Shown here piece after piece: positions 48,822 through 63,820 of a stretch of 64,000 nucleotides of DNA (position 1 is its first letter; every line of letters starts with the position of its first letter). The translations under genes were made by a program, and so were the position numbers. The notes below the pieces were generated by a model. It made no database searches and had not been told where the DNA came from. It saw only the letters and a list, made by a program, of their open reading frames with translations. This DNA is from a virus (lineage: Duplodnaviria > Heunggongvirae > Uroviricota > Caudoviricetes): positions 64,001 to 128,000 of IMG/VR virus record IMGVR_UViG_3300029305_001878. The stretch is one strand, 5' to 3'.

Positions 48822-48922
48822 AAAAGGGGATAAAAAAAATCCCCTTTTTTCTAAAAAAGGTATTGACAAATCAATCAATTGGGTGTATAATAAAGACAGA
48901 TAAAAGAAAGGGGAACACCAAA

Positions 48923-49078: not shown

Positions 49079-49127
49079 CAAAAGCCCCAAGGTATGATAT
49101 ACTTAATACAACAAATAAAGAAAGGAA

Positions 49128-49433: not shown

Positions 49434-49492
49434 CAACTTCAACCCTTTATGCTATAATAAAACCATCCAATAGAGAAAGGAAATAAATAAAA

Positions 49493-49708: not shown

Positions 49709-49799
49709 GCGAGGGGAAACCCTCGCTTCTTTTTTTCTAAATTAAAAAATTACCTATTGACAAATTTATAAAAATATGATATAATATATATATAAAAAA

Positions 49800-49900
49800 T
49801 AAAAAATTTATTTTACTTTAGCGATTTAATTGACTAAAGTAAAAATAAAAAATTTATTTTGAAATTTTATTTACTTTAGCGATTTAATTGACTAAAGTGC
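49800..49900. repeat. 60-bp direct repeat x2, each containing the palindrome ACTTTAGCGATTTAATTGACTAAAGT
   Basis: Copies at about 49812-49840 and 49871-49898. A hairpin cggctcgct…agcgagccg follows at 49903-49945. Confidence 0.55.
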
Positions 49901-50129
49901 GGCGGCTCGCTACCGGGCGCCCTTTCCCTGCAGCGAGCCGAGTTTCACAAAGCAGGGCATTCACACTTTAAATCGTTGAAGTAGGCACTTTCACACATTA
50001 AAGCGCTAATTCCCAAAACTCCCCCAAATTTTTGTGCATTTTGACGAAAACTATTTTTTCAAAATCGGTTGACAAATCCGCATTTATCGAGTAAAATAAG
50101 GTATAACCTAAATCAAGGAGGTCACTACA

Positions 50130-50315
50130 ATGACTACTCTGTTAACTGCTGATTTTGATACCTACACTGCTATTGAAGGTTATGTATTCGATCTTCTGGC
50201 AGACGAAGAAACTGAAGTTGTTCTCTCTGAAATTCAGACTTTTGCTGCTGACCTCGGTGTAGCCTTTACTGAATGGGATTTGACTTCCTTGATGATGGAT
50301 TTTGAAGAAATTTAA
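50130..50315 (+). CDS. early acidic small protein (61 aa)
   Basis: Promoter TTGACA ~50069, CAAGGAGG RBS and TAA. Confidence 0.5.
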   Translation: MTTLLTADFDTYTAIEGYVFDLLADEETEVVLSEIQTFAADLGVAFTEWDLTSLMMDFEEI

Positions 50316-50332
50316 TTTTGGGGGTAATAATT

Positions 50333-50524
50333 ATGTATAAGTACTATTTCCACATTATTGATAACGAATTCAATTCTGAATACGACTATGAGGGTTATTT
50401 TGATAACCACGAAGAAGTCGAACCTTTCATTCAAGATAATGAAAAGGTTGGTAATATTATTACCATTATTTCTCCCTATTATGAATATGTAGACAAGGCA
50501 GATTGCCCGTCTTGTTATCTTTAA
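50333..50524 (+). CDS. early small protein (63 aa, C-terminal CPSC)
   Basis: GGGGG RBS and ATG 50333. The ORF track begins at an upstream TTG. TAA stop. Confidence 0.45.
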   Translation: MYKYYFHIIDNEFNSEYDYEGYFDNHEEVEPFIQDNEKVGNIITIISPYYEYVDKADCPSCYL

Positions 50525-50532
50525 TTTCTCTT

Positions 50533-50575
50533 TTCGTCAAAATGCACAAAAATTTTATTTGTGCATTTTGACGAA
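50533..50575. repeat. perfect ~40-bp palindrome TTCGTCAAAATGCACAAA-N-TTTGTGCATTTTGACGAA
   Basis: Seen directly. Belongs to an 18-mer family also found at ~50028, 50940, 50975, 51018 (inverted), 55285 and 55322. Confidence 0.6.
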
Positions 50576-50599
50576 AATTGGGCCGGCCGGAGACGAACG

Positions 50600-51045
50600 C
50601 GCAGAGGTAGTTGTAGGCCGAACTTTCACACGCTAAAGCGTTAGCGAATTAAAGCGTGAAAGCGGCACTTCATCGATGTAAAGCGCTAAATCCCGAAAGC
50701 GCACTTCATTTGACTAAATCGCTAAAGTGATTGTTTATTTAACTTTTCACTTTTCTTTATTTGACTAAAGCGCTAAATCGGTAAAGTGATTGTTTGTTTA
50801 ACTTTTCACTTTTATTCATTTGACTAAAGCGCTAAAGTCCGAAAGTGCCCAAGGGCCCCGGAACTTTCACGAATTAAAGTGCTACAGAATTAAATCGCTA
50901 AAGTGGCACTTCATTACGCTAAAGCGCTAATTCCCTAAAGTTTTGTGCATTTTGACGAATTTATTTGACTAAATCGCTAAATTTGTGCAATTTGACGAAT
51001 TCATTTGACTAAAGTATTAAATTCGTCAAATTGCACAAACTTTTC
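50600..51045. repeat. ~450-bp non-coding repeat field (TTGACTAAAG/CGCTAAAG units, a direct repeat TTAACTTTTCACTTTT(C/A)TTTATTTGACTAAAGCGCTAAA x2, three TTTGTGCA(A/T)TTTGACGAA copies)
   Basis: No ORF with an RBS. Shares its core with the 46298-46485 repeats. Confidence 0.55.
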
Positions 51046-51113
51046 AAAATCGCTTGCAATTCGTAAAATATGTAGTATAATAGTACCATAAGATAAAGAA
51101 AGGAATTGATACT

Positions 51114-51590
51114 ATGAAGAACTTGCCGAAGATGATTTGTTTCGATATGGATGGAACGATTGCCGACCTGTACTCTGTCAGTGGATGGCTTGAGGACTTG
51201 AGAGCGGAAAACCCTAGACCCTACCTTGAAGCCACCCCAATGTGCGATATGTGCGCACTGCGTGAAGTGTTGGAGCAGTTCCGCCAGATGGGAACAGAAA
51301 TTCGTATCATCACTTGGCTGTCTATGAACAGCACCGAAGAATACAAGGAAGCAGTACGAACCGCAAAGTTGGCTTGGCTTAACAAGTGGAATTTCCTGTT
51401 TGACAATTTCCACGGCGTGCAGTATGGAGCAACAAAGGCAGACAGTATTCGCAAGTATTTGTCCGATGGTGAAACTGCTATTTTGATTGACGATAACGCA
51501 AAGGTAAGAAGCGGTTGGCATATGGGCGAAGCAGTAAACCCGATCGAAACTGATATCGTTGCTTTCCTGCGTGGACTTTTGGAAGATTAA
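51114..51590 (+). CDS. HAD-superfamily phosphatase / 5'-nucleotidase-like protein
   Basis: Motif I FDMDGTIADL (DxDGT) and motif IV ILIDDNAK. Promoter TTGCAA-N-TATAAT ~51048-51078. Conserved translation-initiation region GAAAGGAATTGATACTATG. Confidence 0.6.
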   Translation: MKNLPKMICFDMDGTIADLYSVSGWLEDLRAENPRPYLEATPMCDMCALREVLEQFRQMGTEIRIITWLSMNSTEEYKEAVRTAKLAWLNKWNFLFDNFHGVQYGATKADSIRKYLSDGETAILIDDNAKVRSGWHMGEAVNPIETDIVAFLRGLLED

Positions 51591-51710
51591 AAAAAATCTT
51601 CCAAAATTCCGTTGAAGTGGTTGACAAGCGGCGGATTATGTGATATCATATAAGAGCAATCAAGAGCGATGGCAAACTTGATTGACATTATAAAAAGGAT
51701 CTGATAATTT

Positions 51711-52463
51711 ATGAACATTGACCGCAGAAAGCACTATCTTTTGTGCGTGGACACCGAAGCTGCAAATTGCATCCAAGAGGGATGGAAAATTAGCAAGAAC
51801 TCGCTTCCATATGACATTGGTTTTGCAGTGATGGATACACACGGGATGATTTATGACAAGTTTTCCTATGTCAATTCTGATGTGTTCTATGGTATGCCCG
51901 AACTGATGGAAAGCGCATACTATGCGAAGAAGTTGCCCCGATACCGTGAAGAAATCGCTTGCGGTTTGCGGACTGTGGCTGATACTTGGACAATTCGCAG
52001 AAAGATGCTTGAAGTCTGCGAAACATACGGAATTAAAGAGGTCGTAGCGCATAACGCAAGTTTTGACTATGACACACTAAATAACATTGTTCGATATCTG
52101 ACTGGTTCTAAAGTTCGGTATTGGTTTCCGTTTGGGACTGTCGAATGGTGGGACAGTATGAAAATGGCACAATCGGTTATTTGTAAAATGCCGATGTACA
52201 AAGAACACTGCAAAGATGTACTCGGACTGAGCAGAGCAAGCGCAAAAGCGGAAAATCTTTACAGATGGATTATTCAAAATCCCGATTTCACAGAAGCGCA
52301 TACAGGACTTGAGGATGTTCTCATTGAAAGTCAAATCGTTGCATACTGTTACAGACAGCACAAGACAATGAACAAGCGACTTTTTGCGAATGATTTTCCC
52401 GAAGCAACGGACTTCCAAATTGCGCTGATGCGCTCCATCAAAGACCACCCGATGCTTTACTGA
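51711..52463 (+). CDS. DEDDh (DnaQ/RNase T-like) 3'-5' exonuclease
   Basis: Exo I LLCVDTEA, Exo II VVAHNASFDYDTL and Exo III HTGLEDVLIESQI. Two upstream TTGACA promoters (51632, 51693). TGA plus terminator (ggggagaaaaaaatctccccc). Confidence 0.65.
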   Translation: MNIDRRKHYLLCVDTEAANCIQEGWKISKNSLPYDIGFAVMDTHGMIYDKFSYVNSDVFYGMPELMESAYYAKKLPRYREEIACGLRTVADTWTIRRKMLEVCETYGIKEVVAHNASFDYDTLNNIVRYLTGSKVRYWFPFGTVEWWDSMKMAQSVICKMPMYKEHCKDVLGLSRASAKAENLYRWIIQNPDFTEAHTGLEDVLIESQIVAYCYRQHKTMNKRLFANDFPEATDFQIALMRSIKDHPMLY

Positions 52464-52617
52464 TCGAAATATGGGGAGAAAAAAATCTCCCCCAATTTCA
52501 AAAATATTTCTTGACTTTTGAAAGTCTATCGCTTATAATAGTTAGTGTAAGGGATAACCCCTCACAAAATAAATCAAAGACAGGTTCAAGTCTTAAAAAC
52601 CGAAAGGAATTGATACT

Positions 52618-53037
52618 ATGAAAAAGTTCACTAAGAGAGAAAGCCTGACTGCCATTTCCAATGTCCTGAATGAACTGCTTGTCGCAGAGGGCAACACGGT
52701 TCTCGCCAATGTCAAGGACAAGGAATACACCGTACAGGATGCATTGGAATTTTGTTCCAACGAAATCAGCCTGTTGGACAAGAAGAACGGCACGGTAAAG
52801 AAGCCGACCGACAAGCAGATGCAGAACGAAAACTACAAGGAAGCAATTCTGCGTTATCTGCGAGAGGTTGCCCCGGAACACAAGGCAATCGCCGAAATTT
52901 GGGATAGCGTGGAAATGCTCGCAAGTAATCCCGATATGACCGGTCAGAGAATTTCCGCTCTGATTACACAGTTGAAGAACGAGAACAAGATTGTTCGAGT
53001 TGAGGAAAAGCGGAAAGCCTATTTCAAGGCAGTATAA
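52618..53037 (+). CDS. winged-helix DNA-binding protein, paralog A (139 aa)
   Basis: C-terminal ~70 aa (…YLREVAPEHKAIAEIWD…PDMTGQRISALITQLKNENKIVRVEEKRKAYFKA) are near-identical to 54407..54817, including at the DNA level. Promoter ~52510 contains the palindrome GACTTTTGAAAGTC. Conserved translation-initiation region. Confidence 0.55.
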   Translation: MKKFTKRESLTAISNVLNELLVAEGNTVLANVKDKEYTVQDALEFCSNEISLLDKKNGTVKKPTDKQMQNENYKEAILRYLREVAPEHKAIAEIWDSVEMLASNPDMTGQRISALITQLKNENKIVRVEEKRKAYFKAV

Positions 53038-53140
53038 TTTGAAGCGGTGGGGATTGAAAAAATCCCCACCGACCCCTTGACAGCAACGGAAATATTTGCT
53101 ATAATTAAGGGGCAAGATAACTAAAGGAGATGAAAACCGA

Positions 53141-53500
53141 ATGACAAACGAACAGAAAAAGCGTTTGGAGTTTACAATGAAAACTCTGAATATGACCGAA
53201 GCCGAAGTGCTTGCAATGTGGGAAGAGGACAAAGCAATCGACAAGGGCGAAAAACTTTATGAACTTGACCCCGAACTGGAAGCAGGAGCGAAAAAGGCTC
53301 GGCAGGCTGATCGCAAGAAGAACAGCGAACCTACCAAGAGAGAGCGCAAAGAGGACACCGACAAAACGGAAATCCTAAATGCTCTAATGGATAGCGTAAG
53401 TTCCAAAGCGGAGAAAATCGAAAAGACCAAAAGCGGCGAATTTGAATTTGTTTTCAATGGTCGCAAATTCAAGGTCGTACTTTCTGCCCCTCGCAAGTGA
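53141..53500 (+). CDS. early basic/acidic hypothetical protein (119 aa)
   Basis: Promoter TTGACA ~53075 / TATAAT, AAAGGAGATG RBS and TGA. Confidence 0.5.
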   Translation: MTNEQKKRLEFTMKTLNMTEAEVLAMWEEDKAIDKGEKLYELDPELEAGAKKARQADRKKNSEPTKRERKEDTDKTEILNALMDSVSSKAEKIEKTKSGEFEFVFNGRKFKVVLSAPRK

Positions 53501-53529
53501 GGGGCAGAAAAGAAAGTGAGGTAAAAAAA

Positions 53530-53715
53530 ATGACAAGGGAAATGCTAGAAATTGAATACCAGACTGCTTGGGAAACAATGCAGGAAGCAGAGCGAAATTA
53601 TAAAATGGCTCGCGCAAACTTTCACGATGTTGCAGGATTGCTAATGGAAAAGTTGATGCTTGAAAATGTGGATGTGCTTGCGCGATTGCGCGAAGCAGAC
53701 ACCCCTACGATTTAA
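53530..53715 (+). CDS. early small coiled-coil protein (61 aa)
   Basis: GTGAGG RBS and ATG 53530. TAA, followed by the bidirectional terminator gtgtgcgcggctggcgcacac. Confidence 0.45.
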   Translation: MTREMLEIEYQTAWETMQEAERNYKMARANFHDVAGLLMEKLMLENVDVLARLREADTPTI

Positions 53716-53760
53716 CCAATTAAAGTGTGCGCGGCTGGCGCACACTTTATTTTATTAAAG

Positions 53761-53816
53761 TTATCGATATACTTTTATCGATATATTTCATTTTTATCGA
53801 TATATTTTTATCGATA
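53761..53816. repeat. four iterons of the palindromic 9-mer TTATCGATA at 15-18-bp spacing
   Basis: Copies at 53761, 53775, 53794 and 53808. Flanked by two hairpins and the motif TTTAGTCAAATGAAG. Confidence 0.6.
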
Positions 53817-53835
53817 ACTTTAACGCTTTAGTCAA

Positions 53836-53915
53836 ATGAAGCGCCGGGCGCTGACGTACGATGCTCCCACGTCAGCGCCGGAATTTCCATTATACCACAC
53901 CGCCAGCATTTTGTC
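53836..53915 (-). promoter_or_regulatory. leftward promoter (TTGACA-N17-TATAAT on the minus strand) firing through a 12-bp-stem hairpin and the iteron array
   Basis: Revcomp of 53880-53912 is gcTTGACAaaatgctggcggtgtggTATAATgg. Hairpin cgggcgctgacgt…acgtcagcgccgg at 53840-53880. No minus-strand ORF downstream. Confidence 0.4.
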
Positions 53916-53923
53916 AAGCAAAA

Positions 53924-54035
53924 AGTTGCACAAAAATAAATAAATTATTTATCCCGAAATTGTGCAACTTTTTCTGCAAAAGTTACAAATTGTAATTGAC
54001 TTCCTATGAGGTCGGTGTTATAATGTTAGTGTCAA
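53924..54035 (+). promoter_or_regulatory. 13-bp-arm palindrome AAAAGTTGCACAA-N25-TTGTGCAACTTTT plus GTTACAAATTGTAA palindrome overlapping promoter TTGACT-N17-TATAAT
   Basis: An almost identical copy of the whole unit lies at 55452-55535. Confidence 0.55.
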
Positions 54036-54150
54036 GGGGAGATACCTCTGAGCCACATCTATGGTGTGGGGCTACGGTTGGAAGTAGCAATAGACCTTGG
54101 TGCTCATAAAATTGCAATAGATGAGTTGCATAGGAACGCACGAGGATGTG
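54036..54150 (+). ncRNA. candidate small non-coding transcript 1 (promoter-proximal, conserved 5' GTTAGTGTCAAGGGGA leader)
   Basis: A consensus promoter immediately upstream and a second full promoter (TTGACA 54165) downstream. No RBS-led ORF. Contains the hairpin gtgaaaaaattttcac. Confidence 0.25.
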
Positions 54151-54195
54151 AAAAAATTTTCACAGAAACCCCTTGACAAACTCCACCAAGTGTGG

Positions 54196-54310
54196 TACAA
54201 TAAAGGTGTCAAGGGGAATGAGAGACTATCGTCCCCAGTTACAAGGGAGACCACAGGGGATTACATCGGCCGAGTAAGTGGTGTTGCTTGAAAAGAAATT
54301 TGAGAAAATT
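54196..54310 (+). ncRNA. candidate small non-coding transcript 2 (5' GGTGTCAAGGGGAATG)
   Basis: Lies between promoter TTGACA 54165 / TACAAT and promoter TTGACA 54325 / TATAAT. No RBS-led ORF. Contains the hairpin ggggaatgagagactatcgtcccc. Confidence 0.25.
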
Positions 54311-54406
54311 TCTGAAAACCCCTTGACAAATCACCAAGTCTATGATATAATATCAATGTAATCAAGGGAAGGAAAACCCTTAAAAAACCAGAAAGGAATT
54401 GATACT

Positions 54407-54817
54407 ATGGCTAACAAGATGGTAAAGAGAGATTATTTCACTGCTCTGCGTGGCTTCATCGAAGCCCATCCCGAAGTGCATTTCGGCACTGATAAGCATC
54501 CCGACATCCCTATCGGTGATATGCTTGCGTTCGTGGATAACGAACTGACCCTGCTTGCTTCCAAGTCTGGGGCAATCAAGAAGCCCACTGAAAAGCAGAC
54601 TCAGAATGAGGTTTACAAGACCGCTATTCTGCAGTATCTGCGCGAAGTGGCTCCCGAGCATAAGTCCATCGCTGAAATTTGGGATGGCGTGGAAGCCCTT
54701 TCCACTAACCCCGATATGACGGGTCAGAGAATTTCCGCTCTGATTACGCAGTTGAAGAATGACAATCTGATTGTCAGAATCGAAGAGAAGCGCAAGGCTT
54801 ACTTTAAGGCTGCGTAA
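54407..54817 (+). CDS. winged-helix DNA-binding protein, paralog B (136 aa)
   Basis: Same C-terminal domain as 52618..53037. Conserved translation-initiation region GAAAGGAATTGATACTATG. TAA plus terminator (ggggggctaagccccccg). Confidence 0.55.
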   Translation: MANKMVKRDYFTALRGFIEAHPEVHFGTDKHPDIPIGDMLAFVDNELTLLASKSGAIKKPTEKQTQNEVYKTAILQYLREVAPEHKSIAEIWDGVEALSTNPDMTGQRISALITQLKNDNLIVRIEEKRKAYFKAA

Positions 54818-54872
54818 ATGGGCTAACGCCCATTCGGAAATCGGGGGGCTAAGCCCCCCGAAACTTTAATCA

Positions 54873-55289
54873 ATGAAAGGACAAGAAATGTTAACAACTG
54901 AAAAAATTAAAGCCATGGACAAAAAGGCTCAAGAAAAAGGCAAGGAATTTTTTTATTGGGGCTTTTACATTGATTATCTCGGCAATATTATTTGGAAGCC
55001 CGGCACAGCTGCAATTCTGTGGAGACGCAAGAAACAACATGACCGAGATTATTTGAAACCCACGTGTAACCACCGCATGATGGACGGCACAGAATTCCAT
55101 TATTTGTGGGCTATTCCTTTGGCAAAATGGACAACCCGCAAAGTCGAAGAATCTACAATCAACAGACTGAAAGCCGAAAATTTTGGCGAATACATTCTGA
55201 ATGACCGTTTTGTTGATGTAAATCACGCTGAAAGCGTTGATATTATCGTCCGCAAAACCTATACAATTCCCCTTTGTTGTGCAATTTGA
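54873..55289 (+). CDS. early hypothetical protein (133-138 aa)
   Basis: AAAGGACAAGAAATG: the second ATG, at 54888, is the better start. TGA stop. Confidence 0.45.
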   Translation: MKGQEMLTTEKIKAMDKKAQEKGKEFFYWGFYIDYLGNIIWKPGTAAILWRRKKQHDRDYLKPTCNHRMMDGTEFHYLWAIPLAKWTTRKVEESTINRLKAENFGEYILNDRFVDVNHAESVDIIVRKTYTIPLCCAI

Positions 55290-55336
55290 CGAATCCGCCC
55301 CGTAGAAAATGGGGCGGATTTTTTGTGCATTTTGCC

Positions 55337-55440
55337 TATTGACAAATCCAAGCAGATGTGGTATAATGGCCGGCCCTCCACGTGCGCTCGGGCCGGTTTT
55401 TCCATTATACCACGCCTCCCGCATTTTTGTCAAGCGTTTT
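55337..55440. promoter_or_regulatory. face-to-face consensus promoters sharing a GC hairpin (plus: TTGACA-N17-TATAAT 55340-55368; minus: revcomp of 55400-55432)
   Basis: The ggccggccc…gggccgg hairpin plus T5 sits between the two convergent -10 boxes. The minus copy matches the 53880-53912 promoter. Confidence 0.45.
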
Positions 55441-55451
55441 TATAAAAAAAG

Positions 55452-55535
55452 TTGCACAAAATAAAATCCCGAATTTGTGCAACTTTTTCTTGAAAAGTTA
55501 CAATTTGTAATTGACTTCTATGGCTTCTGGATGTA
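55452..55535 (+). promoter_or_regulatory. second copy of the TTGTGCAAC palindrome plus promoter cassette
   Basis: aaaaagttgcacaaa…aatttgtgcaactttt, then gttacaatttgtaattgactt…TATAAT. Confidence 0.5.
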
Positions 55536-55575
55536 TAATGTTAATGTAATCAAAAGAGAGTTCTAGAGGATACCA

Positions 55576-55833
55576 ATGAAAATAATGTCGTTTTGGGTTG
55601 AAAGGGTGGTAAAAATGAAAGAAAAGTTGATCAGACTGTGGGAACGCAAAGAGCGCTACATCATCAATGAATTTTTATTGGAAAACCGCAAAATACTCTT
55701 TTCTCAGGCTTTTGGTGCTTTGGAGTTCGCTATGGAAATGCTTGATAACTGGGATGAAGAGTCCAAACTTATCGATCTGTGGGAAAATGAATGGAAAGCA
55801 AGACTGGAGGATAAAATCTATGAAGTGCGTTGA
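55576..55833 (+). CDS. early hypothetical protein (72-85 aa)
   Basis: Two candidate ATGs (55576, 55615). TGA stop. Confidence 0.4.
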   Translation: MKIMSFWVERVVKMKEKLIRLWERKERYIINEFLLENRKILFSQAFGALEFAMEMLDNWDEESKLIDLWENEWKARLEDKIYEVR

Positions 55834-55945
55834 TTGTGTAATGAGTTGGATAGACCCCGGCGAAGAATACCCCACTTGTCACGCAGACCCTAACTGGCCT
55901 GCACCTTGTGAATATGACGATTATGAAGAAGAGAGGGAATATTAA
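55820..55945 (+). CDS. small Cys-rich zinc-ribbon-like protein (41 aa)
   Basis: GGAGGA RBS and ATG 55820. MKCVDCV…PTCH…PCEY. Confidence 0.35.
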   Translation: MKCVDCVMSWIDPGEEYPTCHADPNWPAPCEYDDYEEEREY

Positions 55946-55946
55946 G

Positions 55947-56105
55947 ATGGAAATTAAATGTCCTTATTGCGGAAGTAAAGAGTACGAATGTTATGATAGA
56001 GTCGGTGATGGAACAATGCAGCCTGAAGACTTATGCGTTTGTGAGGCGTGTGATAAAGAATTTTCCATAGTCTATGCGGTTGACTATATCAAGAAAGAGA
56101 GTTGA
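55947..56105 (+). CDS. small zinc-ribbon protein (52 aa; CPYC…CEAC)
   Basis: AGAGGGAA RBS and ATG 55947. TGA inside a terminator (gagagtt…aactctc). Confidence 0.45.
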   Translation: MEIKCPYCGSKEYECYDRVGDGTMQPEDLCVCEACDKEFSIVYAVDYIKKES

Positions 56106-56172
56106 AAAAACTCTCTTTTTTTTATGCAAATTGACTATTGACAAATTGCGGCGACCTGTGGTATAATAAAGA

Positions 56173-56335
56173 GATAGGGCTTGCCTTCGGCGGGTCGGCC
56201 GCGGCAGCAAGGACCCGAATTCCCGATCGGGTAACCATATGCAAATTTTTCTGTGCATCAAGCGATATATGCCTTTATTCCCGTGCATCCCGAAACCTTA
56301 ATCTACTTAATGGGCGTTTTACGCCCATTAAAGAA
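56173..56335 (+). ncRNA. candidate GC-rich structured sRNA (~160 nt) with its own extended -10 promoter and terminator
   Basis: Promoter TTGACA 56140 / TGgTATAAT. Stems gccTTCGgc, ggccgcggc and cccgatcggg. Ends at aatgggcg…cgcccatt. The only internal ATG ORF is 20 aa and lacks an RBS. The listed ORF 56138..56347 starts at the TTG of the -35 box. Confidence 0.3.
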
Positions 56336-56346
56336 ATCCACACTTG

Positions 56347-56540
56347 ACTTTTTTTAAAAAATATGATATAATATTAAAAAAAACCTAAATTTTTGCCGCT
56401 TTTCCGCCCTTTTTGCCTAATCCAGAAGCAGAAAACTTGACTTTTCTTAAAAAATATGATATAATTATAAAAAAAACCTAAAAATTTCGCGCAAAAACGC
56501 ACTTTTCTTGACAAAATTAAAAAAAAATGGTATAATATTT
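56347..56540 (+). promoter_or_regulatory. three tandem near-consensus promoters upstream of gene 56575
   Basis: TTGACT-N17-TATAAT at ~56347 and ~56437. TTGACA-N-TGgTATAAT at ~56508. Confidence 0.5.
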
Positions 56541-56574
56541 ATAGAAAATAAGAAAAAAATGGAGGATTTATTAA

Positions 56575-56954
56575 TGTTTAACTATGAAGATATCCTGGCT
56601 ATGATGCAGAATGGTGCTAGTGCAGAAGATGTAGCAAAGGAATTCACCGATTCTCTGAATCAGGCTATTAAGGTCCAGGAGGCAGAGAAGGAAAAGATTG
56701 CGGCCAAGGCTGCGGTGACCGCTGACGCGCAGAAGGTGGCTGACGCATTCAACGAGTTTACTGCCAAGCACTATGCCGACGTTGCGTCCGGTGCGAAGAT
56801 TACTGCTGAAGATGTTCTTACTATTTATGATTTGGTATCTAGTCTTAATATTAATTTTAATAAGTTAAAGAACGGCGTTGCTGTTACTTATCATAAAATG
56901 GACGATGCAGTAGATGAAATTATCGAAAAATTCTTCGATAAGTATGGTCTGTGA
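56575..56954 (+). CDS. early hypothetical protein (126 aa)
   Basis: GGAGGA RBS, ATG 56575 and TGA. Twin strong hairpins follow. Confidence 0.5.
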
Positions 56955-56987
56955 TATTATACTCATCTCTTATATAGAAGTATTAAA

Positions 56988-57178
56988 ATAACCTACCTCC
57001 TAGTTAGCCCAGTTATGAGGACAGGAGGTAGGACGGAGACGGAAAATTTTATAGTGGGTAGGTGTCCCGATCGGGGCCACACCTACCCACTCATTTTTTT
57101 TATTTATTCACTCATTTTTTTTATTTATTCACTCATTTTTTTTATTTATCTACTTATTTCTTTTTATTTATTTTATAT
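56988..57178. terminator. twin GC hairpins (bidirectional terminator) followed by three 22-bp tandem repeats ACTCATTTTTTTTATTTATTC
   Basis: acctacctcct…aggaggtagg and gggtaggtgtcccgatcggggccacacctaccc. The repeats lie at 57095-57178. Confidence 0.5.
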
Positions 57179-57211
57179 CCAATAGCAAAGTAATTATAAT
57201 CTTTTTTAATC

Positions 57212-57670
57212 TTACTACCCGTTGTGCGGAGCACAACACAATACCTGCGCTCTCTCTTGCTCTTCCTTTAACAACTTATTTCCAATAGCAAGTCCATTCT
57301 TTATAAGTTCACTTGCCTTCTGCGCTAATACCTCAATATTCAAAAATTCTTCCTTACTTAATTGTGGCGCGTCCTTCATAGTATATGTATATTCTTTTTC
57401 ATCTGCATTTGCGCTCGTGTTCCTGTATGTATTTAAACGCACATAAGGAATCTGCATATTATAAATCTTAATTCCACCATCATTCCTACAATGACCTGTT
57501 ATATTATTATTTCGCACTAACGTAGGATATCCTTCTACTGTAGGAAAGTCTTTTATTACATAATATGAATTGCTATCGCAAGTCATTCTTTCGAACTGTT
57601 CTCTTGTTACTACATACACATCTTTATTACTATACTTACCAATTAATCCACTACTATTTGCAATATCCAT
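57212..57670 (-). CDS. hypothetical protein (152 codons; TAG as penultimate codon, then TAA)
   Basis: ORF 57215..57670 ends in TAG 57215-17, followed in frame by TAA 57212-14. AT-rich. Confidence 0.4.
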
Positions 57671-57776
57671 TTTTCAATTCAACTTTCTATTTCAATTTTT
57701 GGATTGAAAATCCATTTTGGATTTTCAATCCAATTTTCTATTTTAATTATACCATAATTTTTTAAATAAATCAACT

Positions 57777-58010
57777 TTATAATGTAAACATATTATTTTC
57801 TAATAAACTATCCAATTTTTTCATTTCATTTTCTACAATATAATCATATCTAGTAACCGTATCATTAGGATCATAAACTAATACCGTCTCAAATGTATCC
57901 ATATTAATATATACATCTTTAGCCCTATAATATCCATTTTTTGATAAAAGTTTATCTCTAAATTCTTCTTCTGTTACTCTCTTTAAACAAATTCTTGTTT
58001 CAATGCTCAC
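57777..58010 (-). CDS. hypothetical small protein (77 aa)
   Basis: Intact ORF with TAA stop. Confidence 0.4.
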   Translation of the reverse strand: MSIETRICLKRVTEEEFRDKLLSKNGYYRAKDVYINMDTFETVLVYDPNDTVTRYDYIVENEMKKLDSLLENNMFTL

Positions 58011-58335
58011 TATAATATCTCCAATTCAACTCTATTAATATCTTCTTTAGATATTCCTCTTCAGTATCTCCTTTATTCCATTCTACTCCATAATCTTTTC
58101 CTATCATTTTAACTATATGCTTTGGTATTTCCATTATTTATATCTCCCCGTATAGAAAAAATAAATGATATTGAGACGAGCGAAGCGAAGTCGATTATAT
58201 CATTTATTTTTTCCAATAATTATTTAGTCGTTTCTTTATTTAGTATTATTTAGATAATCTATGATTTTTTACCTAAAAGTATATGGAAGCATCTATGAAA
58301 TTTTACCTAAAAGCGTGTAGATAAAATTACCTACC

Positions 58336-58968
58336 TCACTTTTTTATATAATCGAAACTAAATTTTGTAAGTTTCTTTTTCTATTGCTACCCATTAAAAT
58401 ATTCACAATAATCTATTAAACCTGAATTACATAATAAATCTAACGCATTATTAACAATAGAATATCCGCGTGTATTATTCTTTACTCTAATACCTATATG
58501 ATTACCTAATTCTTCTAAATTAAATTCATACTAACGACCCTAACTTAACGCATACTTATATCTCTATCCTAAATAAATATAAATCTTAAATATATGTTCT
58601 CGGCAATTATCTTTTAAATACTATATAGTATCCAAAGGAATATAAAAGAACATACTTTCCATCTCTGGTAAAATATAATCTCCTTCTTCGGTTAATATTA
58701 CATATCCTTTTTCAATTAAATAATTCAAATGTGCTCTTAATGTTTTAGGACTTTTAATTCCTAATTTTTCACACACAATAGATTGTTTTGGAAATTTATC
58801 TTTATATACAATAGTATAATGATTACCTTCATCATCTTTTAAACCCATTGATATCTACTGCAAATAAGCATAAAGTTCTCCATCTATGTTTTTATCATTT
58901 AAAAAAGTTAAATAATCTAAACCAGTATCAGCAGGAAATCTTTTTGATATAGTTTTATCATCCAAAAT
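58336..58968 (-). CDS. double winged-helix protein (replication-initiator / regulator-like, ~200 codons) with at least 7 in-frame TAG
   Basis: ORFs 58855..59037 and 58621..58848 are co-frame. The frame was translated on through TAGs at 58855, 58621, 58564, 58540, 58531, 58387 and 58381 to TGA 58336-38. The second HTH-like segment is ELGNHIGIRVKNNTRGYSIVNNALDLL. AGGAGG RBS ~58969-74. Confidence 0.4.
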
Positions 58969-59029
58969 CATACACCTCCTACTATACTTAAAACTTAAAT
59001 AGGTAAAATTTTTCCATTTTACCCAAAAT

Positions 59030-59200
59030 ATAACCAACTATTAAATTTTACCTTTTTGTATTACAAAATTCTTATCGGCAACTATTAAAAATTACCTACA
59101 AATTTCAAATAAAAATAGGGAACTATTAAAAATTACCTCGTTTTTTTACCTATTTTGTTTCCCACTTAACATTTAGAGCCAACTATTAAATTTTACCTTT
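59030..59200. repeat. four direct repeats CAACTATTAAA(A/T)TTTACCT plus additional TTTTACCT copies (also at 58262-58340)
   Basis: Copies at ~59034, 59081, 59121 and 59183. These iterons flank gene 58336..58968. Confidence 0.55.
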
Positions 59201-59352
59201 TTTAATTAGATGTATAAAATTTTAACACAATTTTTAACATTTATCCAGATGTACAAAATTTTAACTTCTGGACTAACAATTACTAAATTGATTTTTAATA
59301 AAAAATATGATAAAATATATTTGTAAATAAAAAGAAATAAGGATGATATAGA

Positions 59353-59817
59353 ATGATTCATCTAAAACAATGTAAGACTTGCGGTTTTCGCATTAGCGAA
59401 TCGGGTAAGTGTAGACTAACCGGGCAGGTTAAACGGGAAACCGCATTTTGCGCCGACCACAATTATAACCCATCTATTTGTTCCAGATGTGGAGCATATA
59501 CTTTAAAACCAATTATTGAAGATAACAAAATCTACTGCCAGAAGTGCGCAGAAGAAATCGAATCTTGTATGGGCTGCGCCCATACAAACTGCGAATTTGA
59601 ACAAAATCCGTCACCAATTCCCAAATATATTCAAAAACAAATCCGTCAGGGGCCAATGATTAGTCAAATGACCGTAAAAAGTCAGAAAAGAATCGACGAA
59701 TTCTGCACAAAATGCATTTGCTGGAACGCTGAAATAAATGATTGCGGCAGGCAATTTAATTGGTGCGCTAATCACACTGACTATAGAAAGGAGATTATAA
59801 TCGAAGATGCTAACTAA
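59353..59817 (+). CDS. multi-CxxC zinc-finger protein (154 aa)
   Basis: AAGGATG RBS. At least 8 CxxC pairs. TAA overlaps the next ATG. Confidence 0.5.
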   Translation: MIHLKQCKTCGFRISESGKCRLTGQVKRETAFCADHNYNPSICSRCGAYTLKPIIEDNKIYCQKCAEEIESCMGCAHTNCEFEQNPSPIPKYIQKQIRQGPMISQMTVKSQKRIDEFCTKCICWNAEINDCGRQFNWCANHTDYRKEIIIEDAN

Positions 59818-60187
59818 ATGCCCTTTACCTTATTGCCAATATCCTGATTGTCCGTCAGGAAAAATTAGAAATTGCGGCCACCTACACGAAGACCTACTCG
59901 CAGAAGTAGTGGCCGAGCGCAATGAACTTCTAAATATTACACGACATACAGAACGCATTCTTAAAGATACTTTAAATCTTTATAAAGGAATTGCATTGAG
60001 CGAACCTGACTTCGATGCTTGTCCCTTCGGGCGCACTGATTGTATTAACAATCCTCAATATCGAAAAGAAACTGATTATAATGAATGGGCGGAGAATGAT
60101 TATCCTATGACCTGTTGGTATGTAGAAAATAATTATGTCTCCGTTGAAAAAGGTTATTGCGGTCACTATGACGATGAAGATAAGTGA
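59807..60187 (+). CDS. Cys-rich protein (126 aa)
   Basis: Translationally coupled to the preceding gene. TGA stop. Confidence 0.45.
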   Translation: MLTKCPLPYCQYPDCPSGKIRNCGHLHEDLLAEVVAERNELLNITRHTERILKDTLNLYKGIALSEPDFDACPFGRTDCINNPQYRKETDYNEWAENDYPMTCWYVENNYVSVEKGYCGHYDDEDK

Positions 60188-60196
60188 GGAAAATAA

Positions 60197-60409
60197 ATGG
60201 TTATGTTTAAAATTCATAATAATGCTTATATTAAATGGGATATAATTCGTGAAATTGAGATTAAACCTAACATTAATTTAGGAGAAGAATATCCTCACGA
60301 TATAGAAATAGATTTCATAGGCGGAGGGCACGACGTTTGGATGGTTGACGATGAATCCTTGGCTGAAATTTATAAACAATTAAATTCATCTACTATTCTT
60401 GGAGGATAA
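60197..60409 (+). CDS. hypothetical small protein (70 aa)
   Basis: GAGGAAAATAAATG RBS and TAA stop. Confidence 0.45.
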   Translation: MVMFKIHNNAYIKWDIIREIEIKPNINLGEEYPHDIEIDFIGGGHDVWMVDDESLAEIYKQLNSSTILGG

Positions 60410-60411
60410 TT

Positions 60412-60597
60412 ATGCCTAAATATGAAATTTTTGCCGGCATTTGGAACTTACACTCGCACGGCATTTATGAATATGACAATATTCACGAAGCGGAAAAAGA
60501 TGCCTATGAAAAAGCAATAGAAGAATATCATTCTTATGAGGGTTCTCACGGCATTCTTGACTATGATGAATGTTGCGAAGATGCTCGTGAATCTTGA
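60412..60597 (+). CDS. hypothetical small acidic protein (61 aa; the frame stays open 31 codons past the TGA to TAA 60692)
   Basis: GGAGGA RBS. Sequence after the TGA reads GCEDWTEEDFENFYNETIQLTIQYAVEEVSE. Confidence 0.4.
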   Translation: MPKYEIFAGIWNLHSHGIYEYDNIHEAEKDAYEKAIEEYHSYEGSHGILDYDECCEDARES

Positions 60598-60741
60598 GGT
60601 TGTGAGGATTGGACCGAAGAAGACTTTGAAAACTTTTATAATGAAACAATTCAATTAACTATCCAATATGCGGTAGAAGAGGTATCTGAATAATTTCTTA
60701 CTAAATATATTATATCATAAAAAGAAAGGAAAATCAACTAA

Positions 60742-61275
60742 ATGCGCACAGAGTATAAAGAAGTGTCTTGGCGGAATATGCGCCCGGGTGATATTATACA
60801 CCAATTCAAGTGCGGCAATAAAACCGCAATGGGAAGTTATAAAGTGTTAAGCGCAAACGTAGGAAATATTGTACTTCAATCTACATATCACGAAAACGCG
60901 ATTCCAGAAACTTATAATCCAGAAGAGTTCAAGTTGGTTATAGAATGTACTGAAGAGGAATTGCGCGAACGCTATCATAAGGCGGCGAGTGAGGCCGTTG
61001 AAGCGCTCAAAAACACAATCTCCCACGATGCTATTGGAGAACACGAAATGTGGAATGGTTGGCTTGGTGTAGACGCTTACGAATTCGCGCAAATTATTTC
61101 TAAAGAAGATTTTAAAATTATTGGTGTTTGTTATGATATTCCTATCAAACACGGTCTCTTTGATGATTTTGATATCGCTGTTGTAATTGAATACTCTGAT
61201 GGAGAAAGATTTTGGTGTCATTATAAATCTCAATGGTTATCTGATATCTTTAAAGATTGGGGTGCTAGTAAATGA
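60742..61275 (+). CDS. hypothetical protein (177 aa)
   Basis: AAAGGAAAA RBS. TGA overlaps the next ATG. Confidence 0.5.
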   Translation: MRTEYKEVSWRNMRPGDIIHQFKCGNKTAMGSYKVLSANVGNIVLQSTYHENAIPETYNPEEFKLVIECTEEELRERYHKAASEAVEALKNTISHDAIGEHEMWNGWLGVDAYEFAQIISKEDFKIIGVCYDIPIKHGLFDDFDIAVVIEYSDGERFWCHYKSQWLSDIFKDWGASK

Positions 61276-61745
61276 TGTTCTGGTTTGTTACTATTATACT
61301 TCTTGCTATCTTTTTTACCTGGGGTATTGTTCACAAAGAAAAAGATATTGAAGCGTATCTTTGTTTTATTCTTATTGCGCCATTTATTGGATTTATAGTC
61401 ACAAGTATTGGTTCACTAATTCTAATGCATAGTGCGCCGACCGCAATCATAACCGAAATTAATGAACCTATTGTTGAACTTGAAGATGGTATTTATGCCT
61501 ATTCTCAAAAAAATAGTGATTATTATTATGATGTTTTTACCGAAGATGAAAATGGTCTCCCACAAAAACGTACTTTTCATATTACACGGAATGATGTAAT
61601 TTATAGCAATAAGTATGAACCTACATATTATTATTGTGATAGAGATTATGAAGATGAAATTCTGCGCAAACTATTTTGGAAATGTAGTTGCGATGATGAA
61701 TTAAGAGTAATTCTTCCGCCCAATTCTTTAAAGGAGATTGATTAA
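61272..61745 (+). CDS. membrane protein (two N-terminal TM helices)
   Basis: ATGA overlap with the preceding gene. TAA, then terminator aaacctctttga…tcaaagaggttt. Confidence 0.5.
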   Translation: MMFWFVTIILLAIFFTWGIVHKEKDIEAYLCFILIAPFIGFIVTSIGSLILMHSAPTAIITEINEPIVELEDGIYAYSQKNSDYYYDVFTEDENGLPQKRTFHITRNDVIYSNKYEPTYYYCDRDYEDEILRKLFWKCSCDDELRVILPPNSLKEID

Positions 61746-61783
61746 ATATATAAAACCTCTTTGATAAAATCAAAGAGGTTTTA

Positions 61784-61812
61784 TTGATTTTTATAAAAAA
61801 ATATATTATAAT
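61784..61812 (+). promoter_or_regulatory. promoter cassette copy 1 (TTGATT-N17-TATAAT); identical 40-mers at 62715-62743 and 63761-63789
   Basis: TTATTGATTTTTATAAAAAAATAT(A/G)T(A/T)TAATATATATA occurs three times, each directly after a terminator hairpin. Confidence 0.55.
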
Positions 61813-61850
61813 ATATATACAAAGTAAAGATAAAGAAAGGAATTGAAACT

Positions 61851-62030
61851 ATGAATTGGAAAGATGCTGCTCTGTATTGTCGAAAGACCTTTGGTTCTCA
61901 CATTGACTGGGAAGAAGAATTCTTCGAGTGCCCTGAATGCGGCGAGCCCGTTTATAAGATCGATTGGGAAGACCACGACGATTGGAATATCTGCCCTATC
62001 TGCGAAATTGAGTGGGAGTGTGTTGAATGA
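61851..62030 (+). CDS. zinc-ribbon protein (59 aa; CPEC…CPIC)
   Basis: Conserved translation-initiation region GAAAGGAATTGAAACTATG. TGA overlaps the next ATG. Below the ORF-track size cutoff. Confidence 0.45.
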   Translation: MNWKDAALYCRKTFGSHIDWEEEFFECPECGEPVYKIDWEDHDDWNICPICEIEWECVE

Positions 62031-62350
62031 AACCTTATAATGAATTAGTTAAATCCTATAAATTTATTGAGTTCGATGATTTATGTGAACTGATTGGTGT
62101 AAAAAATGGTTTACGCTCATTTTGTTTTCCAGTAGAGCAAGGTAATGATACATTTGTTCCTATTCATTGTGATGATTATAGTCTAGAAGAATTGTATAAT
62201 GAATTGAATATTAATGATAATGACATTCTTTATACAAAATACTATGAAAAAAATTGGCGCGAACGATACAAAAATGAAATCAAACTCATTGAAACTCTGC
62301 GCGACACCTACGGCATTCGTGATACTGTATTGACTTATATTTCTTGGTAA
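62027..62350 (+). CDS. hypothetical protein (107 aa)
   Basis: Intact ORF with TAA stop. Confidence 0.45.
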   Translation: MKPYNELVKSYKFIEFDDLCELIGVKNGLRSFCFPVEQGNDTFVPIHCDDYSLEELYNELNINDNDILYTKYYEKNWRERYKNEIKLIETLRDTYGIRDTVLTYISW

Positions 62351-62353
62351 GGA

Positions 62354-62608
62354 GTGGTAAATATGATTAAGATGACTACTGCTAGTAAGGCTCGCGCTAA
62401 AACCGAGTTTGCACGAAGCATTGGAGAATATATTGAATCCTTTAACGAAGCAATTGAATACCGTACTTCTCGAGGGGAAGACCATATGAAAGCCCAGAAA
62501 GCACCTAAAATGAATATTGGACAGTGGAATATATTCCTTGATATGATTGAGAATGCGGGTTATCGCATTGTTAAGGATAATGATACTACAATTGATGTAT
62601 ATTGGTAA
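62354..62608 (+). CDS. hypothetical protein (84 aa)
   Basis: AAGGAGTGG RBS and TAA. Terminator ccgtggatg…catccacgg. Confidence 0.45.
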   Translation: MVNMIKMTTASKARAKTEFARSIGEYIESFNEAIEYRTSRGEDHMKAQKAPKMNIGQWNIFLDMIENAGYRIVKDNDTTIDVYW

Positions 62609-62775
62609 TTATGTTATTTGCTGAAATTGTCAGTGTAATCAGTTTTCTACTAATCCTTCTATTTGTTATTGTTAAATTTGTAAACCGTGGATGATTACAT
62701 CCACGGATTTTTTATTGATTTTTATAAAAAAATATATTATAATATATATAGAAGATAAGGAAAGGGAAATGAATA

Positions 62776-63024
62776 ATGGCTATTAAAATTTACAAGTGGC
62801 GATGTAAAGTCGCTGACCCTATGATTAATGAAGAGGGTGTCGCATCCAGTAGAGGATTAGTGGCAGCAGAAAGTTATACTGACGCCGTTGCTCGTGTATT
62901 TGAATATATGTGCTGTGGCAATGATGATGCAGTTTTTGATATTTATCTCGAATCTTGGGATACCGATATCCTTGGTATGGAAAAAGAAGTGCTGAAAGCA
63001 GTAGAGGAGGATCACATATTTTGA
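62776..63024 (+). CDS. hypothetical protein (82 aa)
   Basis: AAGGAAAGGGAAATG RBS and TGA stop. Confidence 0.45.
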   Translation: MAIKIYKWRCKVADPMINEEGVASSRGLVAAESYTDAVARVFEYMCCGNDDAVFDIYLESWDTDILGMEKEVLKAVEEDHIF

Positions 63025-63275
63025 CTACTAAATTTGTTCTTGCTGAGGATCCTCGTTATGGTGGAGAAGATATCCTCGGTATCTATTTTGATAGAGCAGA
63101 TGCCGAAGAAGCATTTTATGAAACCTGCGCTGACTGGGTTTATGAAACTATGATGACCGCAGACCCTCTCGATGTATTTGGTCTACCTGAATGGGATTGG
63201 AAGATTGACTATAAGTGGTTGATGGAAGATTGCGCTCGCACCTTAATTATCGTAGAGGTTCCTTGCTATGATTAA
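63021..63275 (+). CDS. hypothetical acidic protein (about 84 aa, TTG start after GGAGGA)
   Basis: The ORF-track entry 62955..63275 begins inside the previous gene. A TTG at 63021 lies 9 nt after GAGGAGGA. Confidence 0.35.
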   Translation: MTTKFVLAEDPRYGGEDILGIYFDRADAEEAFYETCADWVYETMMTADPLDVFGLPEWDWKIDYKWLMEDCARTLIIVEVPCYD

Positions 63276-63525
63276 ATACTATTGTATTACTGCATTTACT
63301 TCTTTCTGCGGTGAAGAAACAAATCATTATCTAGCAATTGAAAGCGATGATTGTCTTGATAATTATGACGCAGAAATTGATGATTGGGTTTGCGATAATG
63401 CTGAATCTTATTGGGATTATCACGAAGATGAATATGAATGTTTTGAAGATTATCTCGCTGAATGTTCTTGGGAAGAGTATGAGATATCTGAAGCAGAATA
63501 TATTTATTGTACAAAGGGTGAGTAA
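63268..63525 (+). CDS. hypothetical acidic Cys-containing protein (85 aa)
   Basis: Overlapping start. TAA overlaps the next ATG. Confidence 0.45.
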   Translation: MIKYYCITAFTSFCGEETNHYLAIESDDCLDNYDAEIDDWVCDNAESYWDYHEDEYECFEDYLAECSWEEYEISEAEYIYCTKGE

Positions 63526-63726
63526 ATGAACATCTTTAAAAATTGGTTTAATTCTTTTCTTTTGATTCTTTCTAATATGGGTGTCGTTTTTAGTCTATGC
63601 GGTGGTTTGGTGTATTCTGTAATTTTCATTTGTAATGCAAATCTGTTAGGTTTCGTTCTTTCCGGTTTTATCTCTGTTTTCTTGGCTTCTATTTTTAAGG
63701 CTATTAACGACAATTTGCCCATTTAA
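63526..63726 (+). CDS. small membrane protein (66 aa, 2 TM)
   Basis: Hydrophobic. TAA, then terminator gcctacctag…taggtaggc. Confidence 0.45.
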   Translation: MNIFKNWFNSFLLILSNMGVVFSLCGGLVYSVIFICNANLLGFVLSGFISVFLASIFKAINDNLPI

Positions 63727-63820
63727 TATATAAAGCCTACCTAGTTTTAGGTAGGCTTTATTGATTTTTATAAAAAAATATAGTATAATATATATATAAA
63801 AGTTGGAAGGAGTAAATAAA

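Follow-up and report, generated by a model that had tools for sequence, protein, structure and literature searches.

The DNA analysed here is a stretch of 64,000 nucleotides (hereafter, the window) that corresponds to positions 64,001 to 128,000 of the IMG/VR record IMGVR_UViG_3300029305_001878, a caudoviricete contig of 185.5 kb from a phage whose genome exceeds 185 kb. From 43.5 kb onward, transcription in the window runs in the direction opposite to that of the preceding genes and the standard code is used; this part is presumed to be the early region. Three kinds of short sequence recur there at gene boundaries: a 19-nt translation-initiation region (TIR), a terminator–promoter module (class II), and an array of sigma-A consensus promoters (mostly class I). 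A preliminary description of the window had likened such boundaries to the promoter-early stem-loop (PeSL) cassettes of T-even phages and had proposed that they provide homology for modular recombination.

The backbone of the early region is a set of core genes. Four of them (HAD, exonuclease-like, winged helix-turn-helix [wHTH]-A, and g53141) have homologs in 44–61 of approximately 160 diverged loci, mostly in this order. Across these loci, a longer order (HAD, exonuclease-like, wHTH, g53141, wHTH2, g54873, g56574, and g59353) recurs at 25–60 per cent protein identity, with some changes in order and widely varying spacing. No early gene of the clade is better conserved than the one for the wHTH proteins (115–145 amino acids [aa], two to three paralogs per phage), which is also the commonest gene behind the TIR. 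The uncharacterized family has no Pfam domain and no given name; its predicted model (predicted local distance difference test score of 90) matches winged-helix DNA-binding domains. In the window and in loci L001–L114, wHTH genes always have their own consensus promoter, leader hairpin, and fixed TIR. Most accessory open reading frames (ORFs) at 43.6–50.5 and 59.8–63.7 kb have no homolog in the approximately 160 related loci.

Predicted expression signals at early gene boundaries

The 19-mer GAAAGGAATTGAWACTATG has four exact matches in the window, all on the plus strand, and the last three bases of each are the ATG of the gene that follows (Table 1). None of 100 shuffles of the sequence gave four copies (mean of 0.01). 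The preliminary description had placed the 19-mer in front of four unrelated genes; the four sites and their start codons are as it gave them, but the genes represent only three unrelated families, because wHTH-A and wHTH-B are paralogs (60 per cent identical, E = 5e-58). All four TIRs are the first start site behind a promoter. Copy 1 lies 16 nt 3′ of the −10 hexamer of a weak promoter (51054–51081) and copy 4 lies 22 nt 3′ of the −10 hexamer of module 1, while the leaders of copies 2 and 3 contain hairpins (52546–52566 and 52577–52594 for copy 2; 54364–54381, with the stem AAGGG/CCCTT and the loop AAGGAAAA, for copy 3).

Beyond the window, the 19-mer is found without a mismatch in more than 114 IMG/VR stretches, chiefly contigs of 90–240 kb, where it precedes genes for wHTH-family (115–140 aa), exonuclease-like, HAD, AbrB-like, SSB, P-loop kinase(-like), and other proteins. 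Relaxed matches outside those used for fetching the sequences give the consensus GAAAGGA-A-(T/A/C)-TGATAC-N-ATG, in which variation clusters at positions 7–9, 15, and 16. A near-consensus promoter is located no more than 120 nt upstream of 129 of the 154 unique TIR sites (84 per cent), compared to 17 of 91 control ORFs, and the distances from the −10 hexamer to the TIR are bimodal (10–19 or 30–39 nt). A search of bacterial genomes totalling 596 Gb gave 99 occurrences of the 19-mer. Approximately half of these fall in loci that resemble phage DNA, where 8 kb can hold as many as 23 consensus promoters and which were assigned mainly to metagenome-assembled genomes (MAGs) of the Clostridia type; the remaining sites belong to scattered ordinary genes, at about the level expected by chance.

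Many contigs among loci L198–L287, from the bacterial genome collection, combine the TIR with dense consensus promoters in MAGs labelled Clostridia, Lachnospiraceae, and Acutalibacteraceae, and also Treponema, Bacteroidales, and Nanosyncoccus. These contigs are probably phage contigs that were mis-binned into bacterial genomes.

The TIR includes an 8-nt Shine–Dalgarno (SD) sequence, whose GAAAGGA can base-pair with the outermost 3′ nucleotides of the Bacillus subtilis-type 16S rRNA tail, 5′-GAUCACCUCCUUUCU-3′. The predicted duplex with this tail consists of 8 bp, a 2 × 2 internal loop, and 4 bp (TGAT), at −13.3 kcal/mol. The distance from the end of the tail to the AUG is 17 nt, within the reported optimum of 15–21 nt (PMC5732282), for a tail that is of the B. 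subtilis type and may not be that of the host. Pairing with the anti-SD sequence is insufficient as an explanation of the whole 19-mer, since 9.5 per cent of random spacers pair with the 16S tail as well as the spacer with the invariant TGATAC does.

Longer leaders carry a small hairpin with a covarying stem (AAGGG/CCCTT, AAGAC/GTCTT, AAGTG/CACTT, AAGAG/CTCTT, or GAGG/CCTC) and the retained loop AAGGA(A/C)A. Searches of 43–64 kb with Rfam covariance models gave no match that came close to a gathering score. RNase J1 of Bacillus is blocked by ribosomes bound to a strong SD sequence, as in the hbs mRNA (PMC5737220); by analogy, a 5′-proximal SD sequence or hairpin may protect the mRNA 5′ end in this phage.

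The class II module contains TTATTGATTTTTATAAAAAAATATATTATAATATATATA, which matches exactly at 61781 and 62712 and with one mismatch at 63758 (chance expectation of 0). It comprises a TTGATT −35 hexamer that merges with the U-tract of the intrinsic terminator before it, a constrained 17-bp spacer made of a T-run and an A-run, and a TATAAT −10 hexamer. The preliminary description had reported three copies of an identical 40-bp terminator–promoter unit, each following a hairpin. The three sites, the starts of their −35 hexamers (61784, 62715, and 63761), and the hairpin and T-tract that each module adjoins (61750–61784, 62685–62706, and 63730–63761) bear this out, although the pattern as written was off by one base and gives no matches. 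The identity holds for the T-tract and promoter of copies 1 and 2, which are the same across 41 nt (61779–61819 and 62710–62750), but copy 3 differs at two positions, and the sequences of the hairpins differ among the three modules; therefore, what is repeated is the T-tract and promoter only. The hairpins are predicted to terminate upstream transcription. Between 59 and 64 kb, modules divide operons of three to six genes rather than single genes, and at least four further copies lie past the window, at the window-equivalent positions 71436 (exact), 64568, 67828, and 70475 (four to six mismatches). The 36-mer of the window recurs unchanged in 36 further metagenomic stretches with unrelated flanks, a close variant with two free positions has exact matches in 13 viral stretches, the unrelated contexts with an exact module number approximately 50, and relatives show the same hairpin-then-promoter arrangement with other hairpin sequences.

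The promoter array occupies the first part of the early region, where a scan of 46.5–56.6 kb for TTGACA-N17-TATAAT found 12 perfect and 12 one-off sites (at least 11 of 12 positions). Several array promoters are preceded by a GAAAAAATTTTC/AAACCCC element and followed by AAAGACA, and each promoter heads, from 15–65 nt upstream, one to three small ORFs or an ORF-less stretch. In the mapped promoters, a T- or A-tract lies upstream of the −35 hexamer, and an SD sequence and ATG follow 16–62 nt after the −10 hexamer. The AAAAC(C)CTTGACAAA...GATATAATAAAGACA promoters noted in the preliminary description were recovered as repeat families D1, D4, and D9, and the TTGACAAA...TATAATAAAGACA repeats were likewise confirmed in the early region. 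Three promoters in tandem within 56344–56536 could have arisen when a promoter unit was duplicated in tandem. The class I consensus is TTGACAA-N17-TGnTATAAT; across 723 promoter sites sampled without bias, the class I hexamers are fixed and the spacer is free, carrying no information except for the extended −10 TG.

Two perfect consensus promoters of the same region are on the minus strand (53917–53889 and 55433–55404). The former reads into a hairpin at 53884–53838 (−27 kcal/mol, z = −4.9); the latter faces the perfect plus-strand promoter 55339–55367 across the hairpin 55369–55401, so that the two are convergent and approximately 35 bp apart. On the plus strand, ORF-less stretches of approximately 135 and 114 nt are situated behind consensus promoters at 53996–54165 and 54173–54320. 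The former folds well (z = −3.7) and has no Rfam match; its homolog in locus L051 is 85 per cent identical, with compensatory changes in two hairpins. Both stretches are candidate small RNAs or long tandem-promoter leaders that feed wHTH-B. A CsrB-like sponge, considered for these GGA-rich transcripts, is not supported, as folding places most GGA motifs in stems.

Beyond the window, at the equivalent of approximately 68.9–72 kb (17087–20180 of locus L128), there are genes for phosphoribosyltransferase-like and isochorismatase (nicotinamidase-like) proteins, possibly auxiliary genes for NAD salvage; the isochorismatase-like gene is directly behind the fourth exact promoter module.

Table 1. Positions of the repeated signals, core early genes, and late-gene features in the window
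Feature	Position	Strand	Description
Late-gene block	1–43556	minus	Long ORFs seen solely with TAG recoded
Match to phage sigma-factor family (phrog_5767, E = 1e-45)	42441–43556	minus	First gene of the late block
28 sigma-A consensus promoters	46583–56536	plus	Mostly class I, TTGACA(A)-N17-(TG)TATAAT
TIR copy 1	51098–51116	plus	SD GAAAGGA, spacer ATTGATACT, ATG; HAD-like gene 51114–51590
Core early genes	51114–53500	plus	HAD-like 51114–51590, exonuclease-like 51711–52463, wHTH-A 52618–53037, g53141 53141–53500
TIR copy 2	52602–52620	plus	wHTH-A 52618–53037; promoter 52511–52539 upstream
TIR copy 3	54391–54409	plus	wHTH-B 54407–54817; promoter 54323–54351 upstream
Three tandem promoters, A/T spacers	56344–56536 (56344, 56437, 56508)	plus	Feed gene 56574–56954
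Class II-like promoter, TTGATT-17-TAAAAT	59288–59316	plus	Heads six-gene operon 59353–61745, which ends at module 1
Module 1	61750–61819	plus	Hairpin 61750–61784, −35 TTGATT 61784, 17-bp A/T spacer, −10 61807–61812; three-gene operon
TIR copy 4 (A variant)	61835–61853	plus	59-aa zinc-ribbon gene 61851–62030
Module 2	62685–62750	plus	Hairpin 62685–62706, promoter 62715–62743; four-gene operon
Module 3	63730–63796	plus	Hairpin 63730–63761, promoter 63761–63789; one spacer T>G

Selection, copying, and possible exchange of the signals

With a probability of roughly two in three, we interpret the repeats as standardized expression signals of the early, host-transcribed region in a large uncultured clade of TAG-recoding phages. 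Under this interpretation, each unit would combine a consensus sigma-A promoter of class I or class II, a leader that is either very short or folds into a 5′ hairpin whose loop is of the AAGGA type, and a fixed TIR in which GAAAGGA, pairing with a Firmicute-type 16S end, is followed by the invariant TGATAC. Host RNA polymerase and ribosomes would use these parts for strong, insulated early expression, and purifying selection would hold them nearly invariant. In a secondary role, the boundaries may let genes enter, leave, or change place together with their promoters; copies of a module may be homogenized or duplicated within a genome, and recombination between copies may join distant segments. 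As the preliminary description had held, the shared boundaries are regulatory parts (promoter, terminator, SD sequence, and start codon) that small early genes of unrelated kinds have in common. They are not unique to this genome, being found widely in viral and metagenomic stretches.

Conservation in diverged genomes points to selection. Upstream of wHTH cassettes, 100 nt have a median identity of 68 per cent to the window (maximum of 82 per cent), while the median for wHTH coding DNA is 55 per cent, compared to a random baseline of 48 per cent, and the proteins are 35 per cent identical. In locus L153, an identical 36-bp promoter precedes a zinc-ribbon ortholog that is 56 per cent identical and has a different hairpin upstream. 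Because orthologous cassettes keep the 19-mer or the 36-bp promoter at 25–60 per cent protein identity, these elements are best regarded as selected functional signals; on these comparisons, the identity of the repeats does not appear to be primarily a footprint of recombination.

Some variants are peculiar to individual genomes. Four copies of the module in this genome are at most one mismatch apart, a closeness that only 1 of 107 unbiased class II sites reaches, and all lack the clade-consensus TG; ATATATTATAAT occurs four times here, and ATATGATATAAT has at least four exact copies in IMGVR 3300024270_000013. Such variants are a case of concerted evolution, which could reflect copying between modules or selection for a co-regulated subclass.

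As to exchange, close relatives are at least 99.7 per cent identical, clonal, and colinear, and therefore uninformative. The more diverged relatives differ by whole promoter-led ORF units between conserved core genes, and by some changes in gene order, as the proposal of cassette exchange would have it; the HAD and exonuclease genes, for example, are neighbours in the window, but six extra promoter-and-ORF units separate them in locus L017. One independent contig, L131, is identical to the window from 61779 on; before this point, it has the sequence that lies upstream of the module at window-equivalent 71436. The join point is the 36-bp promoter repeat shared by the copies at 61784 and at the 71436 equivalent. 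A swap with another phage was considered and rejected, as the seemingly foreign flank is from the same genome, 9.6 kb downstream, making the junction intragenomic. L131 passes correctly through two other copies of the repeat; thus, the k-mer size of the assembly is inferred to be above the repeat length. Neither the junction nor its flank was found in IMG/VR or JGI metagenomes, and no reciprocal product was seen. A circle, a tandem duplication, or a rearrangement would each produce such a topology. Two other variant ends, in loci L134 and L146, were set aside: they are located at or within genes instead of modules, one flank looks bacterial, and they may be chimeras. The proposal that the boundaries supply homology for modular recombination is upheld in part: units do vary between core genes, but the identity of the boundaries is chiefly a selected one, and direct evidence of exchange is thin. 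Because each genome has dozens of these parts between its genes, an additional role as PeSL-like portable boundaries is plausible, with indirect support from the varying units, the non-consensus variant shared by four copies, and the L131 junction.

Several points weigh against the interpretation as standardized expression signals with a secondary role in exchange. The activities of promoters, terminators, and TIRs are predicted from consensus matches. Exact-match searches pick the conserved tail of the distribution: class II sites taken without this bias typically differ from the 36-mer of the window at approximately eight positions, and one in 107 is within one mismatch of it. The invariant TGATAC is left unexplained by anti-SD pairing. 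Finally, the case for recombination at modules depends on the 3.7-kb contig L131, itself a possible chimera, and on comparison with very distant relatives, in which breakpoints cannot be placed to the base.

The failure of rRNA pairing to account for TGATAC leaves room for a sequence-specific factor. The 19-mer, perhaps with the GGA-loop hairpin, might be kept mainly as the site of a trans-acting factor that co-regulates a set of early genes, and a T4 RegA/RegB-type phage translational repressor or RNase, a host CsrA-like protein, and a wHTH protein acting on DNA are candidates for this role. Such an operator regulon would be compatible with standardized expression signals, and we consider it rather unlikely. 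TGATAC and its distance to the ATG are nearly invariant even though SD pairing needs neither, the commonest TIR-linked gene encodes a conserved winged-helix protein with two to three paralogs per phage, and the GGA of the loop and that of the SD sequence are approximately 22 nt apart, a spacing that resembles the two-site arrangement used by CsrA. However, the analysis brought up no RNA-binding protein as a candidate regulator, the GGA-loop hairpin is absent from two of the four TIR copies in the window, and most GGA motifs of the ORF-less transcripts are predicted to be in stems. A bolder proposal, about as doubtful, adds to a dedicated trans-factor site of this kind (fixed 19-nt TIR and GGA-loop hairpin, forming a clade-wide early regulon) modules that are active recombination substrates and make circles or duplications. 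It would amount to a Gram-positive counterpart of PeSL shuffling that comes with a complete package for transcription, mRNA stability, and translation.

Recent duplication, gene conversion, or horizontal spread of mobile cassettes could also yield identical copies whose full sequence is under no selection. The genome-specific variants in several exact copies, the unrelated flanks of exact copies, and the L131 junction, which connects two copies, all fit this view, but we judge it improbable: orthologous cassettes retain the elements although changes have saturated their coding DNA, free class I spacers beside fixed hexamers and TIRs are the pattern expected of function, and mismatches in the TIR are concentrated at few positions. 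Still less credible is a sink or decoy in which dense promoters and strong SD sequences would serve mainly to draw the RNA polymerase and ribosomes of the host off its own genes by titration. The density of 28 promoters per 10 kb (up to 23 per 8 kb in relatives), the ORF-less promoter-led stretches, and the convergent promoter pairs across hairpins are in keeping with it, yet most promoters precede conserved or plausible ORFs with good TIRs, and the fixed TIR spacer is left unexplained. Because the class II module consists of A and T only and is of low complexity, chance in AT-rich DNA or an assembly artifact might be suspected, but either is barely conceivable given that shuffles expect 0 to 0.01 matches, that the elements hold fixed positions relative to genes, and that the same sequence was assembled at 99.7–100 per cent identity in at least 10 independent samples.

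The phage and neighbouring features of the window

The G+C content of the window is approximately 30 per cent, with an island of 37–44 per cent at 46–57 kb. Read in the standard code, the window has only nine ORFs of at least 200 aa; when TAG is read as a sense codon, long minus-strand ORFs cover 39.7 of the first 43 kb. The largest recoded ORF (18374–27034) encodes 2,887 aa and has 52 in-frame TAGs. The late ORFs encode capsid, portal, and terminase proteins, as well as a sigma-factor-like protein. The match of the latter to phrog_5767 suggests that late transcription may use host RNA polymerase with a phage sigma factor. The standard code of the early region agrees with a published proposal by which only late genes are recoded (bioRxiv 10.1101/2021.08.26.457843). 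Two capsid-type genes, which are highly expressed (29005–30135 and 33983–35137), have no in-frame TAGs. A search of the window for tRNAs gave none, and hence no suppressor tRNA within it.

The best matches to the terminase are from SPbeta-type (YonF), Enterococcus, and Geobacillus phages and from the gut phage phAss-1, and the nearest named relatives of the phage are Enterococcus, Geobacillus, and Bacillus phages and phAss-1. The last is a described TAG-recoding phage with Eubacteriales as its predicted host (PMC10607447). A crAss-like identity, suspected from the TAG recoding and the 2,887-aa ORF, and a T-even or T4-like identity were both rejected, as the terminase, portal, and capsid proteins match those of SPbeta/phAss-1-like Bacillota phages. 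Assemblies 99.7–100 per cent identical to the source contig come from at least 10 independent samples. Among GenBank phages, there was no nucleotide match to the region, the leaders, or the modules, and a search of IMG/VR with accessory proteins found no closer relatives. The clade probably infects Clostridia-type Bacillota; the search of bacterial genomes for the host returned mostly phage contigs in Clostridia MAGs and chance-level chromosomal genes, without a clean host call.

Several other features of the early region deserve mention. Arrays of short direct repeats at 46246–46545 and 50612–51021 flank the first half of the promoter array; they include TTTGACTAAATCGCTAAA, AATTAAAGTGCTA, and TTTGTGCATTTTGACGAA, in five to eight copies each, and have the look of operators or iterons to which a DNA-binding protein might attach. 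Right after the terminator 53721–53754, four copies of the palindrome-containing TTATCGATA(T/A) lie within 70 bp (53757–53825) and may form an iteron or operator cluster. An AT-rich module on the minus strand (57215–59205), which holds a small HTH_36-like gene (58621–58848), breaks up the plus-strand early region, and four copies of AACTATTAAAWWTTACCT (approximately 59044–59200) are located between it and the divergent plus-strand promoter at 59288. Many assemblies end at a 20-bp tandem repeat at approximately 57083–57150. An early ORF on the plus strand (60412–60690) is broken by an in-frame TGA (60595–60597), a codon that differs from the TAG recoded in late genes. Homology runs past this TGA in locus L151, and locus L183 has tryptophan at the aligned position; either a fixed TGG>TGA nonsense change or read-through would account for it.

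Comparison with known systems

Literature searches found no description of promoters or regulatory architecture for this group of phages, and the phAss-1 paper (PMC10607447) makes no mention of promoters. The signals described here would provide a first regulatory map for widespread uncultured large gut- or rumen-type phages that recode TAG. The TIR and promoter motifs could serve as markers for early regions in metagenomes and for phage contigs mis-binned in MAGs, and they are candidate strong expression parts for Clostridia. The recombination role, if true, would explain the turnover of small accessory genes in these phages.

Clusters of many small early genes, in which every gene or small group has a very strong sigma-A promoter and ribosome-binding site, are reportedly also a feature of other phages of Firmicutes, such as SPO1, whose host-takeover module Stewart et al. 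are said to have described in 1998, and the early regions of SP82 and T5 are said to be similar; the elements of the present phage are far more uniform and are common to a whole metagenomic clade. Near-identical promoters in front of non-homologous genes, within and between genomes, recall the putative mobile promoters that Matus-Garcia et al. reportedly found in bacterial chromosomes in 2012, whereas here they form part of an early-gene system of a phage clade that includes a terminator and a TIR.

The position of an SD sequence (GAAAGGA-type) or a hairpin a few to approximately 30 nt from the predicted mRNA 5′ end is shared with the STAB-SD and hbs 5′ stabilizers of Bacillus. Unlike STAB-SD, the SD sequence of the TIR is the functional one of the start site, and a stabilizing role would be additional to it.

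Among known systems, the nearest counterpart is the PeSL of T4-like phages (Arbiol et al. 2010 [PMC2839356]; Comeau et al. 2014 [PMC4122927]), in which a sigma-70-like promoter, an AT-rich region, and a stem-loop are followed by an SD sequence and start codon upstream of ORFans (PMC2839356). The composite parts of the boundaries agree with this published anatomy, as the preliminary description had claimed. In both systems, the intergenic unit extends from the upstream stop codon and an AT-rich region to the SD sequence and start codon, is repeated tens of times, is concentrated in plastic regions before ORFans, and has been proposed as a substrate of modular shuffling. A conserved core with variable promoter-led ORFs is likewise the pattern of hyperplastic regions (PMC2839356), and the topology of the L131 junction is that of a mini-circle or duplication. 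The differences are also clear. In the present phage, the stem-loop is situated upstream of the −35 hexamer (class II) or in the leader, whereas that of PeSL is mostly between or over the hexamers. The 19-nt TIR is fixed across the clade, which is not a described feature of PeSL. Moreover, the lineage is an unrelated one, with an SPbeta/phAss-1-like terminase, a probable Bacillota host, and TAG-recoded late genes, and the resemblance to PeSL is therefore one of analogy and not of descent. The architecture is real but not fundamentally new, and it shows that standard parts of the PeSL kind also exist outside the T4-like phages.

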